A stretch of 18,540 nucleotides of DNA from Chthoniobacteraceae bacterium (GTDB lineage Bacteria > Verrucomicrobiota > Verrucomicrobiia > Chthoniobacterales > Chthoniobacteraceae). Each line of letters begins with the position of its first letter. Within the stretch, counting starts at the first letter, position 1. Shown here in pieces: positions 12,230-18,540 of this stretch. The position numbers and the translations under genes were made by a program. Under the pieces are notes generated by a model. It had not been told where the DNA came from, did not search any database, and worked only from the letters and a program-made list of their open reading frames with translations. The stretch is taken from positions 1 through 18,540 of the forward strand of contig JANNWY010000032.1 in assembly GCA_031409335.1 (NCBI GenBank). The letters run 5' to 3'.

Positions 12230-14794
12230 TTACTTTGTGAAATGCACCCTGATCAAACGCCTCGGGTGAGTCGGGTCATTCGTGAGGTAAAGGTCGCGGA
12301 CTTCGACGGTGCGCGTTGCACCAGTTCCGGTTTCGACCACACTCACGCCACCCAGCAGCGGAGCCATCGCGCCGCCATTGACGCTGGCTGAAAGGTTCGT
12401 CCATGGGCCGGCCAAGTTGTCAGCACCTTGCACGGTGATCGTGATGTCGGTATTGGCGAGGGTGCGGGTGAAGGTGAGGGCAAGCCTGCTACCGATGGCG
12501 CTCACTTGCAGGAGCGGTGTCTGCGCGGCGGCAGTGGGGTTTCCTCCGAGGGCATATTCGACGAGGTTCACGAGGTGGTCTTTGTCGAAATCCGCGAGGA
12601 ATCCGGCGACGGCAGGGTCGTTCACGGCTGCGGGGAAATGGGCGAGCTGCCACGTCTGCCATGGACTTGGAGTGATGCGAGTGAGCACGACATCGTTGCC
12701 AGTCCCGCCGGTGTAACTGATGCGCCACCACTGGCTGTCTTCATAGAACTCCGTATTCTGCGGCAGGCCGGCGAAACTTCCGCTGATGGCTGCGTTGCTG
12801 GGACCGATTTCGAGGATGCGGAAAGTGGAGCCGGCGGGAAGGGCGGGGACGGCGACGAGATCGAGCGCGCCGGCGAGCGTGACGGTGCTGGTGGCATGGG
12901 TTAGCGCAAGCTGGTCGTATTGGACGCCAAAGATGGTGCCATTCAGACGGGCGCGGAGGGTGCCCGCCGCGTTCACGGCGAGGTTGCCATTGACCGTGCG
13001 GGCACCGGTGCCGGTGCCGAGCGCGAGGATGCCGCTGATCACGGTCAGCCCACTGTTGAGGCTGCCAGCAAGTTCGAGCCGGCCGGCCTGCACGGTCGTG
13101 CCGCCGCTGTAGGTGTTGGCTGCATTCAGGCTCATCGTCCCGGCGCCAGCTTTGGTGAGTGCGCCATTCGTGATCGGGACGTTCACGGACAAATCCAGCT
13201 CGGCCACACCGTTGGCGACAATGAAAGAACGGGCAGCTCCGCTGAGATCGAGCAGGCCGGACGCGCCAGTGCCAGACCCATTGGCGATCGTGGCGGTGGC
13301 GTCGGAAAGGAAGTTGAAATTCACATCCCCCGCGACGGCGATTCTAGCGGGCGTGGTGCCGTGCGGCATGAGGTGGATGGCATTGAACGTTAGCGAACCT
13401 CCCACAAGCGTGAACGTTTGCGCTGCATCGACCTGGAACGTGTGAATACTAAGAGCGCCGCTGCCACTTAGCGTGACGGGACCGGAGAATTGCGCCGCAA
13501 TCAGTGTGGAATCCCACGACGGGATGTAGCCAGCGGTTAGTGATCCGCCGGTAACATTCAATGTCTCGCGCACGTATAGCTTGCGGACAGTGTGCGCGCC
13601 GGAGGCGAGGGTGACGGTGACGTTTGCGCTGGGTCGGTCGAGGATGACGGTGTCGTTGCTGCCCGGCAGGCGCGTCGCGGGCAGCGTCAGCGGCCCGATG
13701 CGTGCCATTTGCCCCGGACCCTGCACAGGTGCGAACGGCATCAGCCCGCTGTTCCAGTTCGTCAGCGTCGTCCATTGCCCGTCGCTGTTGGCTACCCATA
13801 GCGCCGGAACGAGGGAGTCTTTCAAAAATTCGATGCCACCCTGCGCCACATCCACATCAATGTTGGCTCCGCCATTCGCATAACCATTGAGCCGTGCGGT
13901 GCTCGCATACTGCCAGAATTTCCATGGGTGCGTCGGATTCGGAGCGTCGTCCCACGGCCCGTAGATCGCCGCGAATGTATCCTTCGGGTGAGCATTCTGC
14001 ACGTCGATCGCGCTCGGGTTCGCCTGATTCGGCCAGCGCGCGCTCCACAGCGAAGATCCCGCCACGACCTGATTGCGCAGCGAAGACGCGGCATTTCCCA
14101 GCACATTCGAAGCGTAGTTCCCATTGGTATAAATGACGGGGCGGATACCCATCACCGCATAGACCCGGTCGGAAAAATCAATGCAGAATTGCGCCATCTG
14201 ATCATCCGTCCGGCTGCCATCCCCAGCTTCCAAGTCATGCACTGGCAGCAGGTAGCCGGGACGCATCCACGCGCCTGCCATCTGGATCAAATGATCGGCT
14301 TCGTCCGTGCCGGTGTTGGCAATGCCGCCGGAGCCGGGCGTGCTCGCGATCACGTCTGGCCGGGAAAAGTGATACGAGCCAGCGAACAGACCCTCAGCCG
14401 TGGCGCGCGTGATGTTTTGGACGAAATAGGGATCGTCGTAGCGATGCGCAAACGTGTTCAGACCGTTGGTGTTGTTTGGATCGCTTTGATTGTAAAAGCC
14501 AGTCGTCCCGCCCCGGCTGGCCCGGATGAAAACGAAATCCCGACCGTCACCAAAGACCCCTCCGACTTGCTGATCGGTGGGACGATGCAGCGTCTCCCAG
14601 TTCGCGGCGGTGATGTTTTGCTGATAGTACGAAATGTCGATGCCCAGCGCGCGCTGCTGCTGCGCCCGTGCGGAAACAGCCGCAGTCACGAGCACCGCCG
14701 CGACTGCCGCAGTCGCGATTCTTCCTGCGACGATGCGGCCGCCCAATCGAGCCCGATTGGAGCCTTTTCTCTGGAGGGAGGGAGTTGGCAGCAT
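12230..14794 (-). CDS. Secreted GH25 lysozyme/muramidase fused to an autotransporter-associated beta-strand region and a C-terminal domain
   Basis: GH25 motifs occur in order: GIDISYYQ, FVFIRASRG, GSYHFSRP, PVHDLE (DxE), PVIYTN, LWSARW, WKFWQY, DVD. These are followed by ALTKAGAGTMSLNAANTYSGGTTV and a C-terminal DFDKDHLVNLVEYALGGNP domain. There is a signal-like stretch ..VAAVLVTAAVSARA|Q. The start is uncertain (14794 or 14830). Confidence 0.88.
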   Translation of the reverse strand: MLPTPSLQRKGSNRARLGGRIVAGRIATAAVAAVLVTAAVSARAQQQRALGIDISYYQQNITAANWETLHRPTDQQVGGVFGDGRDFVFIRASRGGTTGFYNQSDPNNTNGLNTFAHRYDDPYFVQNITRATAEGLFAGSYHFSRPDVIASTPGSGGIANTGTDEADHLIQMAGAWMRPGYLLPVHDLEAGDGSRTDDQMAQFCIDFSDRVYAVMGIRPVIYTNGNYASNVLGNAASSLRNQVVAGSSLWSARWPNQANPSAIDVQNAHPKDTFAAIYGPWDDAPNPTHPWKFWQYASTARLNGYANGGANIDVDVAQGGIEFLKDSLVPALWVANSDGQWTTLTNWNSGLMPFAPVQGPGQMARIGPLTLPATRLPGSNDTVILDRPSANVTVTLASGAHTVRKLYVRETLNVTGGSLTAGYIPSWDSTLIAAQFSGPVTLSGSGALSIHTFQVDAAQTFTLVGGSLTFNAIHLMPHGTTPARIAVAGDVNFNFLSDATATIANGSGTGASGLLDLSGAARSFIVANGVAELDLSVNVPITNGALTKAGAGTMSLNAANTYSGGTTVQAGRLELAGSLNSGLTVISGILALGTGTGARTVNGNLAVNAAGTLRARLNGTIFGVQYDQLALTHATSTVTLAGALDLVAVPALPAGSTFRILEIGPSNAAISGSFAGLPQNTEFYEDSQWWRISYTGGTGNDVVLTRITPSPWQTWQLAHFPAAVNDPAVAGFLADFDKDHLVNLVEYALGGNPTAAAQTPLLQVSAIGSRLALTFTRTLANTDITITVQGADNLAGPWTNLSASVNGGAMAPLLGGVSVVETGTGATRTVEVRDLYLTNDPTHPRRLIRVHFTK

Positions 14795-14997
14795 TTTAGT
14801 CCGCGTATAGCCGCCACAAGGTTCCGCCACAAGTGGAATGTCTCTTCAAATCGCTGGAACGAACAAATTTTCGGCAGAGCCAAAGGCCAGACGGCCCGTT
14901 CCGCGGAACGCTGCGACAAAAAAGCGCGATCAAGCGCTCAATCGGCTATTCGCATATGCAATCCTCTCGGTTCTAGAGCTGACCCCGGGCTCACTCA

Positions 14998-15225
14998 CGG
15001 CGGCGCAACCTCACCAAGCTGGGGATCAACCCCGGCGAAGTGCATCGCGCCAGCCGCAGCCGCAAAGGGTATTTGCGCATGAGCCAAAACAGCCTCGTGC
15101 GCTACGCCCTGAACAACCGTTACCTGAAGGCACAGGGAGTGCCTGAACTGAGAGACATCTGGATCCGACTGCACTACGGGGACAAACCCGAGCCACAAGG
15201 CAAAGGCACGTCCCGCAAAGTCTAA
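14998..15225 (+). pseudogene. ltrA: C-terminal (maturase/X domain) fragment of a class C group II intron-encoded protein
   Basis: It reads RRRNLTKLGINPGEVHRASRSRKGYLRMSQNSLVRYALNNRYLKAQGVPELRDIWIRLHYG..*. An in-frame stop lies upstream at 14980, and there are no RT domains. Confidence 0.85.
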
Positions 15226-15304
15226 TTGGAACCGCCCGGTGTGGACCCGCACGCCGGGTGGTGTGGGAGGGGTGGCAGGCGCAATCCTGCCACCCCGACC
15301 CGAT
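14998..15304 (+). mobile_element. Group IIC intron, 3' remnant (ORF end, DV, DVI)
   Basis: A short DV, ACCGCCCGGTGTGGACCCGCACGCCGGGTGGT (15231-15262), carries the CGC triad. The DVI stem is GGGGTGGCAGG/CCTGCCACCCC with a bulged A at 15298, and the terminus CCCGAT ends at 15304. Confidence 0.9.
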
Positions 15305-15309
15305 TAGGC
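15305..15309 (-). other. Remnant of an attC inverse core site R'' (GCCTA|AC), split by the IIC intron
   Basis: On the minus strand, GCCTA lies 13 nt after the stop of the HEAT gene. The intron 3' exon TAGGC fits IIC-attC insertion at GT^TRRRY on the attC bottom strand. Confidence 0.6.
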
Positions 15310-15322
15310 GTTACGGTCGAGC

Positions 15323-15823
15323 TCATGGAGGCGTTTGGAGTCGCTTCTGGGCAAAGGCGCTAATCTTTGGGTTGGGACTCTCGACAAGCTGCCGCAGGCG
15401 GTCAAATGCCTCGGGCGTGCCAATGCGAGCAAGCGCCCAAGTGCATTTGCGCGGCAAGGCGAAGTTCTCGTCGTAATCGAGGTGGGCGAAATGCGCGTGA
15501 GCGGCAAGATACAGGGCGCCAATGCTGCGAGGGTCTTTGAGGTCTTCGAGTGCGAGAGCGATGTCCTCGTGGCGGGTGTGAAAGTCAGCGAGCAACAACT
15601 CCCATAGCAGAGGAACATAATCGGCAGACGGTTGAAACCGAAAGATAAGGCCGAGAGCGAACTCAACGTCGTTTGCGCTCCGGTCGTCGCGAGCCTGCTC
15701 TAATAGACGGATTGTGTCGTTGGGTGTCTGGCTGAAGTCGCCTCCGAAAGCGGAGAACAACTCGCCCTCGGGAATCCTTTGGACGGCGAACTGCAAACAA
15801 GCCTCACGCTGTGCTTCGGTCAT
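15323..15823 (-). CDS. HEAT-repeat protein (166 aa), probable integron gene cassette, possibly immunity-like
   Basis: The start is ATG 15823 (MTEAQREACL..); the ORF-track extension to 15979 is intron DV/DVI sequence. It has HEAT-like helical pairs HEDIALALEDLKDPRSIGALY and RKCTWALARIGTPEAFDRLRQL. Confidence 0.8.
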   Translation of the reverse strand: MTEAQREACLQFAVQRIPEGELFSAFGGDFSQTPNDTIRLLEQARDDRSANDVEFALGLIFRFQPSADYVPLLWELLLADFHTRHEDIALALEDLKDPRSIGALYLAAHAHFAHLDYDENFALPRKCTWALARIGTPEAFDRLRQLVESPNPKISAFAQKRLQTPP

Positions 15824-15860
15824 ATTGGTGTCGTTCTCTGGATGCGCGTAGCGACGCGCT

Positions 15861-17126
15861 ATAGAGTAGGCGAGAAGCGATTGCGGGGGCAAGCTCTTTG
15901 CTGGCGCTGCCGTTTTCGCTTCCGACCCCTCATCAAACCGTGCAGGCGGTTTTCCCGCACACGGCTTTCCGAGTTCCATTCATCGCTTTGGCCTTGGGCT
16001 TTCATGCAGCGGTCCACGCCGCACGGCGCGTCGGGGTCCAGAGTCCGTAGTGGGTTTCGAGTTGCTCGTTGGGGTAGTGTTTGTGGAGGCCGCCGCGGCT
16101 GCCGTGCTTGCGCCACAGCCAGCGGCGCAGCCGGTTGCAGGTCCAGTAAGCGCTGCCGGCTCATCACCCCGGCGCTGTTGCCATAATGGAAGTAACCGCT
16201 CCAGCCCCGCATCACGGCATTGACCTCGCGCACCACTTCCCCAATGGCTCGCCATTGGGTGTGATGGTTGAGGATGCGGCTCACTTTCCCGCGCAGGGAC
16301 CGGCAGCTTTCGCCGGAGGCTTCGACGTGCGGATAGCTCCGCCCGCTTTGGCTCCGCCGCACCTTGACGGTGAACTCAAGAAGGCGGATGGCTTCCTGGG
16401 TCACGTTCACGGTGCGGGTCTTGAGGGCGTTGAGCGTGAGCCCACGGCCTGCAAGCCAGCTTTCGATCTCTTGGCGGATGGGTGCGCCTTGTCCCGCGGG
16501 ACTTAAGACCACGAAGCCATCGGCATAACGAATCAGGCGATGACGACCCCGGCTACTTTCATTGATTTGATGATCCAGAGGATTGAGATAGATGTTCGCC
16601 AGTAAAGGCGAGATCACCCCGCCCTGCGGCGTCCCCTGTCGATTCGGCGTTACTTTCCTTCTCCCTTCCCGGTCCTCTCCCACGATGGGCGCTCTTAGCC
16701 ATGCCTTGATTAGGGCCAGGATCGCCCCATCGCTCACGCGCCGGACCACTTTCTGCATTAACTGCCGATGCGGGATCGTATCGAAGAACTTCGATAAGTC
16801 CGCATCCAGCACTTCCACGCGGCCCATGCGGACGGACTCGCGGTTGGCTTCCATCGCCTGCTGCGCCCGGCGCTTCGGCCGGAACCCATGGGACTGATCG
16901 TGAAAATCAGCCTCATAGATCGGCATCAGCACCAGATACACTGCACTTTGCACTACCCGGTCTTTCACGGTGGGGATCCCCAAGGGGCGTTGCCCACCGC
17001 CGCTGCGCTTGGCGATCCAGGCGCGACGCACCGGCGCGGGCCGGCAAGTCTTTGCCTGAAACTCTCCACGCAACGCTTCGAGCCATTGCTCTCTACTCTG
17101 GGCCGTGGCGGTGATCGTCCGAAGAC
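15861..17126 (-). mobile_element. Group II intron, non-IIC (probably bacterial class E), 5'-truncated by IS30
   Basis: DV is AAGCCGTGTGCGGGAAAACCGCCTGCACGGTTT (15968-15935, AGC triad). DVI has a GAAGCGA/TCGCTTC stem, a bulged A at 15867 and the terminus CTCTAT at 15861. The RT ORF lies upstream. The class call is from recall of DV style. Confidence 0.88.
16002..17126 (-). pseudogene. ltrA: Group II intron reverse transcriptase/maturase, inactivated
   Basis: RT motifs are RPLGIPTVKDRVVQ, SHGFRP, DADLSKFFDTIPH and GTPQGGVISPLLANIYL. YADD has become YADG and FLGF has become LLEF. After a frameshift near 16150 the frame continues YWTCNRLRRWLWRKH..YGLW..AAWTAA* to TGA 16004-16002. The N-terminus is missing and there is no endonuclease domain. 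Confidence 0.92.
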
Positions 17127-17220
17127 GGCGAATTCACAGAGTAAGTGCAACATGGGAAAAATGGCGTTGGGTGAAAGAAGAAGGTCTGGATATGTGGGGA
17201 AATCTGGCAGGAGGATGGCA

Positions 17221-18198
17221 ATGAACTACGAGCAACTCAATGCAGAAGAACGAAGTGCGCTGGCGGCGCTGCGGAGGTTGGGGCTGAGCCTGGCGGAAAT
17301 TGGCCGGCAACTGGGGCGGCACCGGAGCACCGTGGGGCGGGAATTGAAACGCAACGCGGCACCCTACGATGGGTGGTATCGACCGGCGCGAGCGGAGGAG
17401 CGAGCGGTGGCGAGGCGGAAGCGGTCGCGCCGCAACAGCCAGTTTGAGCGAGAGCAATGGGAGCGTGTGGAAGAGTTGTTGAGGAAGGAGAGGAGTCCCG
17501 AGCAGGTGTCCGGGCACCTGGCGCGGACGCGGGAACTGGCGATCAGCCACGAGACGATCTACCGGCATGTGTGGCGGGATCTGAAGAAGGGCGGGACGCT
17601 GCTCCTGCACCTGCGGTGCGCGCGCAGGCAGTGTCGGAAACGCTACGGGCGGCACGACAGCCGCGGGCGGCTGGCCGGGAAGCGGATGATCGGGGAGCGG
17701 ATGATCGGGGAGCGCCCGGCGTCGGTGGAGAAGCGGCTGCGGATGGGGCACTGGGAGATCGACACCGTGCTGGGACAAAGCCTTGGGGAAAGCAGCGACT
17801 GCATCCTGACGCTGCTCGAGCGCAAGAGCGGCTACGTGCTCATCGGGAAGCTGGCGGCGCGGACGGCCGCGGAGGCCACCCGGGCGACGCGCAAACTCTT
17901 GCAGCGCCACCCCGGACGCTGCCAGACGATCACCTCCGACAACGGGACGGAGTTCCATGGCTACCGGGACATGGAGGCCGCCTGCGGACTGAAGTTCTAC
18001 TTCGCGACACCGCATCACAGTTGGGAGCGAGGGACCAATGAAAACACCAATGGCCTGATCCGGCAGTATCTGCCCAAGGGACAAAGCATGACTGGACTAA
18101 CCCAAAAGGAATGCGATGCCATCGCTGACAAACTAAACAACCAACCGAGAAAAAGACATGAATACAAAACACCCAATGAGTGCTTCCTTCGCCGCTAA
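17221..18198 (+). CDS. IS30-family DDE transposase
   Basis: It has the HTH MNYEQLNAEER..EIGRQLGRHRSTVGRELKRN, plus ISHETIYR and the DDE motifs GHWEIDTV, TITSDNGTEF and WERGTNENTNGLIRQYLPKG. The start is 17221 or 17215, not 16888. Confidence 0.95.
   Translation: MNYEQLNAEERSALAALRRLGLSLAEIGRQLGRHRSTVGRELKRNAAPYDGWYRPARAEERAVARRKRSRRNSQFEREQWERVEELLRKERSPEQVSGHLARTRELAISHETIYRHVWRDLKKGGTLLLHLRCARRQCRKRYGRHDSRGRLAGKRMIGERMIGERPASVEKRLRMGHWEIDTVLGQSLGESSDCILTLLERKSGYVLIGKLAARTAAEATRATRKLLQRHPGRCQTITSDNGTEFHGYRDMEAACGLKFYFATPHHSWERGTNENTNGLIRQYLPKGQSMTGLTQKECDAIADKLNNQPRKRHEYKTPNECFLRR
17681..17714 (+). repeat. 15-bp in-frame tandem duplication in the IS30 transposase
   Basis: AGCGGATGATCGGGG occurs twice followed by AGCG, giving RMIGE-RMIGE-R. 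Confidence 0.9.
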
Positions 18199-18375
18199 CC
18201 CATGTTGCACTTCAAAGTTGAGCCTAGGCGGTTGCCGCTGGGGTGGCAAGCCCGGGCAAGGAAAGGCCGCACGTGGAGAAACTGCCGCCCGTGGCCGTGA
18301 CCTGTGCTGGGAAGCAACGAGCCACACCGGACGACCAAGGCTGTGCAATGGCGAGACTCATGACTGGACTGCAAC

Positions 18376-18540
18376 TACTGACACGTCTTTAGGATAGATG
18401 ACAAGTAACGAATGTGCCATGTTTTTGACATGGCGAAGCAAGACGGACGGAAACTCGATCACAAGTCACTGGAAACACTCCGGCTCATGGCGGTGCGACG
18501 TGTGGTCGAGGACGGCGAGAGTCCCAGCGAGGTGATGCGT
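18376..18540 (+). mobile_element. IS630-family element, left end (runs off the window end)
   Basis: A TA followed by CTGACACGTCTTTAGGATAGATGACA resembles IS630 termini and precedes a transposase start. The exact boundary is tentative. Confidence 0.6.
18430..18540 (+). CDS. IS630-family transposase, N-terminus (partial)
   Basis: ATG 18430 reads MAKQDGRKLDHKSLETLRLMAVRRVVEDGESPSEVMR, the DGRKL..LE..R..AV..V..GESP HTH start of IS630 transposases. Confidence 0.85.
   Translation, partial: MAKQDGRKLDHKSLETLRLMAVRRVVEDGESPSEVMR

Follow-up and report, generated by a model that had tools for sequence, protein, structure and literature searches.

Invasion of integron attC sites by group II introns has been described as the speciality of one lineage of class C introns, which reads a hairpin of bottom-strand DNA; the portions of PMC3001079 and PMC4424553 covered here both tie attC targeting to class C introns. 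The view taken in an earlier note on this DNA, that attC introns are IIC and use the bottom strand only, was nevertheless incomplete. In the parts of PMC7923331 (Sonbol and Siam 2021) covered here, UHB.I2, an IIB1/CL1 intron, has the orientation of the cassettes and immediately follows an attC, class E fragments H.ha.F1/F2 lie in a CALIN, and a top-strand attC IIC intron of Enterobacter cloacae is cited. A model of Leon and Roy, as given in the same parts of PMC7923331 and PMC3001079, has a gene joined to attC via homologous copies of an intron, one of which follows a terminator. No class F or verrucomicrobial attC-targeting intron was found in the literature searched, which consisted mostly of papers available without subscription, and the portions of the class F literature covered (PMC3552965, PMC8919778) mention no attC targeting.

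We describe here a lineage of class F-like introns which, as judged from the exons and predicted RNA pairing of its members, is very probably aimed at R' on the top strand of attC. It was recognized from a decayed locus in a Chthoniobacteraceae bacterium.

The stranded cassette and intron 1

The window, that is the whole 18,540-nt stretch analysed, is one entire contig of a 7.9-Mb assembly with 62% GC. A single gene between two convergent group II introns of different classes had been reported, and this layout was borne out by Rfam matches to domains V and VI (DV/DVI) on opposite strands, at 15230-15304 (+; 34.2 bits with E 0.0017, the gathering score being 40) and at 15969-15861 (−; 48.3 bits). 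Also as reported, the 556 bp of 15305-15860 hold one 166-aa ORF only, the 501-bp gene (15823-15323, −), and the letters of the intron 2 3' exon and the 20 nt up to the ATG agreed. T15861 is more simply read as the first exon base (homologous introns end in CTCTAC, followed by TAGGCG), and the span then measures 557 bp. Compared with its clade, the intron 2 junction lacks the terminal intron C and carries an additional C at +4. In runs X1 and X2, contigs spanned the 15861 junction with zero letter differences, and X1 also spanned 15304; both are runs of one study and either may be the source sample. The features are:

14971..14986, + strand: motif at the left edge of what remains of intron 1; 14+ bp of it recur once elsewhere in the genome, at C5
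14987..15304, + strand: intron 1, IIC (IIC-attC-type), 3' remnant with its 3' end at 15304
15305..15310, − strand: R'' of the cassette's own attC (CGCCTA on the cassette strand), cut by intron 1, 12 nt past the stop
15323..15823, − strand: gene of a HEAT/PBS-lyase-like repeat protein, intact, 166 aa, with HEAT_2/HEAT_PBS matches
15824..15854, − strand: 5' spacer of the cassette, holding GCTACGCG and one hairpin arm; resembles the spacers after attC C268 and intron copy L253
15855..15861, − strand: what is left of R' in the upstream attC (its 3' part), TAG-C-GCG; the prediction from R'' is TAGGCG, shorter by one base
15861, − strand: predicted IBS3 (T15861)
15862..17126, − strand: intron 2, class F-like IIB, last 1265 of ~2000 nt, 91% identical to the full-length copy L030
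17127..18224, + strand: IS30-family element (NF033563, 276.6 bits)

The motif at 14971..14986 is possibly a mobile-element end that would mark a deletion point. The left inverted repeat of the IS30 element adjoins the break of intron 2 exactly, and no intron sequence was found on the far side of this element (17127..18224). Beyond it, 18225-18540 holds what we take to be more IS fragments, and the small ORFs at the contig start (172-1070) are presumably IS66-like. Beside the stranded cassette, 12230-14830 (−) encodes a protein with a GH25 lysozyme-like domain and passenger-associated transport repeats.

The 501-bp HEAT gene forms the core of an integron cassette. It is the one ORF between an R' remnant and an R'' that are mutually complementary over 7 bases with one insertion: on the cassette strand TAG-C-GCG stands 38 bases before the ATG, and CGCCTA lies twelve bases past the stop, followed by intron 1. 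Since both ends of the span hold a complementary attC core, the gene was already a cassette before the introns came. The remainder of its own attC beyond R'' is lost. The HEAT protein has 23 other homologues of 39-86% identity, covering 98-100% of the ORF; a search of 350 further genomes of the order and of viral contigs gave none. The proposed lack of room for a promoter held up, with no sigma-70-like site on the gene strand in 14800-17300, as expected for a cassette.

The host encodes an integron integrase, intI, at C166:399-1334, on another contig than the window (416 bits against a cut-off of 265), together with an attI-like site, assigned by eye, and a first cassette. Six intact host attC have an identical 18-base right arm and a seventh differs at one base. 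Complete foldable attC with R and L boxes were found in five host sites and in one rejoined intron-bearing site (L003); folding was judged by z scores in place of a published attC covariance model, and the attC bodies that flanked the cassette in the window are lost. The earlier note had taken GCTACGCG for the core site of R'. It is the spacer after R', seen likewise behind the intact host attC C268, and the presence of GCTACGCGC in the spacer following one intact host attC identifies the candidate as spacer. The GCGCGT-N4-ACGCGC hairpin described at the junction is real over 31 nt (z −2.8) but not significant over 62 nt (z −1.0). As a targeting signal the 6-bp hairpin was rejected, because its outer pairs need the extra C peculiar to the window copy; it could come from a template switch at a quasi-palindrome.

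Intron 1 survives as ~318 bases with an IEP tail (~79 codons, stop at 15223-15225), a short DV with a CGC triad, and DVI. The best matches of the tail (80 aa) are IIC introns, with 47-67% identity to those of related genomes and 38-39% to L095/L097, and by eye it is close to UHB.F1. The intron lies opposite to the cassette inside R'', its 3' exon TAGGCG complementing CGCCTA. The 3' flanks of its IIC relatives are R''-like ends on the opposite strand, and the flank seen in the window also follows the relative L146. Among the relatives matched through DV, two copies in L259 have TTGT and attC-like 5' exons, and L258 has CATGT and an ambiguous exon. Intron 1 agrees with group IIC-attC introns (S.ma.I2, UHB.F1) in every remaining feature; its 5' exon is lost.

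Class and structure of intron 2

Intron 2 is dead and 5'-truncated. The remnant retains DV with an AGC triad and a long DVI at 15969-15862, and an RT/X ORF with YADG at ~16516-16527 and a 1-nt frameshift near 16150, whereas DI-DIII with all EBS elements are missing; the 5' half was not found in the host assembly. Its relatives match Rfam D1D4-6, whereas the IIC loci match D1D4-1/-3. The RT falls outside the class C clade and the intron is co-oriented with the cassette, so that it is not IIC-attC in RT, ribozyme or strand.

The RT phylogeny suggested in the earlier note confirmed a non-IIC intron grouping with class F references, not with the class E-like RT proposed there. In a 32-row tree the intron 2 clade was recovered at 100/100, inside a set with the class F introns B.th.I3, Ni.ha.I1 and the pBIL intron (98/89), with the D, E, C, B, CL1 and g1 references outside. 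Grouping with E was rejected (AU p=0.0014, with two labelled E references and one relative). A quick tree of 87 rows gave weaker class F grouping (83-86 SH-aLRT). Class labels were taken from PMC3552965 Table S2 and PMC8919778 Table 3 for three F and two E references; the trees held neither class A nor CL2 references, and no g4/g5 reference among F. The covered portion of PMC3552965 doubts that class F forms one clade, and given this dispute and the weaker deep support we describe intron 2 as F-like. Its close RT relatives come from Verrucomicrobiota; in the part of PMC8919778 Table 3 covered, seven of the nine verrucomicrobial rows seen, of 34, are F.

With class F g2-g5 (Ni.ha.I1, B.th.I3, pBIL) the clade shares IIB-type RNA, the position in the RT tree, an intron length of about 1.95-2.0 kb and an RT-X protein of ~440 aa without En, as far as these features are given in the portions of PMC3552965 and PMC8919778 covered. 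The ~440-aa IEP of the clade matched the Pfam families RVT_1 and GIIM only, with no endonuclease domain. IIB-type exon recognition (EBS1, EBS3) was found in the full-length relatives and is missing from the window remnant. The clade is nevertheless only 34-42% identical to the class F references and forms a separate, well-supported clade.

Insertion site and predicted target pairing

A non-IIC lineage entering the top strand of attC had been proposed from the window alone, and collecting homologues and rejoining their exons bore this out. The insertion is not just before R', as had been thought: the intron splits R' at GT|T, the clade site being GT|TRRRY inside top-strand R'. In all five full-length copies (L001-L004, L030) the 5' exon is an attC right arm ending in GGTCGT, and the 3' exon reads TAGGC in four and CAGGC in one. 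Their differing attC bodies and downstream genes suggest separate insertions; the clade copies, drawn from a small number of related genomes plus five metagenome contigs, are not independent of one another. The insertion point lies one base past what we take to be the G/TT crossover position and mirrors the IIC-attC site in R''.

The 3' flanks of truncated copies agreed. Among 14 readable clade flanks (identity to L030 of 82% or more in DV/DVI; window left out), 13 are cassette starts, ten of them with an R'-type hexamer and three with small junction changes. Eight of the ten hexamers match T[AC]GGC[GT], a pattern with a background of 0.2% that was drawn from the same data. The one exception, C118 in the host, is 96% identical to intron 2 and is flanked by an ordinary gene fragment, of which no intron-free paralogue was found in the host genome. 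Two copies outside this count have no R'-type start: L254, a cassette start with an altered junction, and the degenerate L227. The sisters L005, L111 and L239 are not at attC.

Rejoining the exons of L003 gave a 126-bp attC whose bottom strand folds with z −5.6, compared with −2.4 to −4.0 for intact host sites, and rejoined L004 folds with z −2.8. Only these two of the five rejoined sites are complete; L002 ends at a contig edge, L001 and L030 have no clear left arm, and fixed-window folds of the L001, L002 and L030 group gave z of −0.7, 1.1 and −1.7. A 13-base junction pattern gave chance matches only in 401 genomes (30 loci read and the host's own, no intron), viral contigs held neither an RT relative nor the junction motif, and no precise intron-free form was found at contig joints.

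Some observations concern the junctions themselves. Small indels and substitutions cluster at the 3' junctions of truncated copies (window 15855-15862, L110:1941, L232:1715, L243:1720, L254, C118). The intact 3' junction makes CTAG, a word under-represented in the host (ratio 0.40), and most junction variants destroy it. Two 3' remnants in L231 (471 and 1609) combine a clade-type ORF tail and DV with a sister-lineage DVI and a TAGGCG start, each fused to a truncated attC, and are probably chimeras.

Derivation of the EBS/IBS pairing from full-length copies, also suggested in the earlier note, gave a predicted EBS1 that pairs 7-8 nt with the exon end in all five. Their Id3 loop is invariant, whereas the Id3 stem changes compensatorily. 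Over 14 EBS1 types, 80 of 84 loop-exon positions pair (permutation mean 35, maximum 64; 0/100000 reach 80). This permutation used one row per EBS1 type, with the register fixed from L003 and the L032 boundary shifted by one base after inspection; it left out rows without a parsed Id3 or with a loop of fewer than 16 letters, and the lineages are kin. The EBS3 base is complementary to the first base of the 3' exon in 10/12 (p 0.0009), with an A-C mismatch in L001. An EBS2, judged by eye, probably pairs 5/6 with the L' region, and in L031 and L032 it co-varies with the exon.

When the 14 pairing positions were scored over the host genome, 38 of ~15.8 million positions reached at least 13/14. Six of these are attC and the other 32 are not, so that pairing alone is insufficient for specificity. 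We consider that it accounts for most of it, with IEP contacts, DNA structure or selection supplying the remainder. Sister lineages of 55-70% identity have different EBS1 loops and different targets, and attC targeting seems not to extend beyond a clade of 75-94% identity; 20 RT protein clusters (P0027-P0045, P0047) are 78-94% identical to this clade. Since the sisters aim at other sequences, the retargeting to attC looks recent.

Compared with IIC-attC introns, the clade uses the same register, GT|T in the core, and likewise has no endonuclease domain. It differs in being co-oriented with cassettes, splitting top-strand R', having an AGC triad, a long DVI and an RT outside class C, and in its 7-8-nt EBS1 and probable EBS2. 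UHB.I2 and H.ha.F1/F2 are likewise non-IIC and cassette-oriented, but according to the covered parts of PMC7923331 they belong to other RT classes and are single or fragmentary cases with exons poorly conserved among homologues; the clade has one common insertion base with a matching EBS, a comparison made without the exact register of UHB.I2. The E. cloacae intron shares the top-strand attC insertion but has a class C RT and an IIC ribozyme (PMC7923331, same parts). Class C introns resembling the E. cloacae-type lineage were also seen in top-strand attC R' in several Gammaproteobacteria (L090-L098), and in L095 one attC carries both a top-strand intron in R' (5230, +) and a bottom-strand IIC-attC intron in R'' (6538, −).

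Origin of the locus and further observations

What remains in the window is the decayed product of a double hit to an ordinary cassette. We consider it highly likely that each attC flanking the HEAT cassette was hit by a different intron: the downstream one by an IIC-attC-type intron in bottom-strand R'', the upstream one by a IIB intron of class F-like type, with intact relatives located at GT|T in top-strand R', a site they would find by the predicted RNA-DNA pairing. Before intron entry the cassette would have had a GTTAGGCG-like R' start and an attC upstream. The bottom-strand IIC-attC-type intron would have entered R'' of the downstream attC and the class F-like IIB intron the top-strand R' of the upstream attC, and the split sites would no longer recombine. 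Later deletions may then have taken the 5' halves of both introns and both attC bodies. Introns that enter the top strand upstream and the bottom strand downstream necessarily point at the gene, so that their convergence needs no special cause. As caveats to this reading, the window's own 5' exon and EBS are gone, its target being deduced from relatives, and its junction departs from the clade form by two 1-nt changes.

One refinement, compatible with the double hit, to which we give somewhat less than an even chance, is that the attC hairpin or IEP contacts confer the real specificity and pairing is merely needed, as in IIC-attC introns. It would explain why 13 of the 14 flanks are cassette starts when only six of the 38 top-scoring host sites are attC, a skew that selection against insertions into genes explains as well. 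Sisters, too, are found at structured DNA (the inverted-repeat element of the L034 group, and in L005 the hairpin by an IS91-like transposase), but the sister group L041-L066 uses many unstructured-looking flanks, and the sites of L001 and L030 are without a clear left arm, possibly through later decay.

It is improbable that intron 2 of the window never entered an attC and abuts a cassette start by chance, with an ectopic site or a deletion joint on its 3' side. C118 shows that non-attC flanks occur, likewise without the terminal C, and the window junction is not of the standard clade form. The flank, however, aligns over 7 bases, allowing one insertion, with the complement of R'' of the same cassette and is nearly equal to the L002 and L253 flanks, and the spacing to the ATG is typical of cassettes. 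Least probable, and by a long way short of likely, is an intermediate of intron-mediated cassette formation after Leon and Roy. A promoterless gene bounded by two RT-encoding introns, and now lying next to ordinary chromosomal genes in place of an array, invites this idea, and the earlier note had thought the layout to fit a role of intron RTs in cassette formation. This did not hold: the model needs homologous copies of one intron, whereas here unrelated classes face each other, both of them dead, and complementary R'/R'' cores of attC with a typical spacer are already present at both ends. The window locus itself gives no evidence on the origin of cassettes.

Under the double hit, the actual finding is the lineage. 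A class F clade reaching the mirror top-strand position with ~14 RNA-DNA pairs, while its sisters aim elsewhere, would make attC cores a recurrent niche entered via RNA retargeting. It predicts arrays in which split attC sites, overlooked by attC finders, keep cassettes frozen, and the intact clade copies, with a known target and predicted pairs, offer a directly testable system. A bolder extension, which we regard as unlikely, makes the clade an array editor that independently redirected its three exon-binding sites to the conserved arm of attC in verrucomicrobial integrons. Its insertion in R', a single base away from the crossover, would lock cassettes in place while splicing keeps them expressed, and together with bottom-strand IIC introns the clade would free a cassette from integron control or, via RT, return intron-free junctions to DNA.

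Further retroelements were seen in the host and in related arrays. In L034-L036, L060, L062, L067 and L087 a sister class F-like intron is inserted at one or the other end of an inverted-repeat element of 290 bp with TA flanks (L034:4960-5242); it has EBS1 GCCCGG and an odd GCAGC 5' end in common with the L031/L038/L071/L072 group. A hairpin element lies inside attC R'' in several arrays (L231, L244, L254, L239:107), and the sister intron at L005:1950 lies within the same type of hairpin, beside an IS91-like transposase end. The genome of L045 has at least 19 copies at short CTCTTG/A-like sites, and at L045:5247-9124 two identical introns stand in direct tandem. In the host, C7:14163-14862 is a 700-nt ORF-less sister intron with its own EBS1/EBS3 and a non-attC flank, and C324 holds a truncated copy. 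Host C149:33600-35900 combines an RT, an Avd-like gene, a template-like repeat and a sulfatase-modifying-factor-like target, which we take to be a diversity-generating retroelement-like system.
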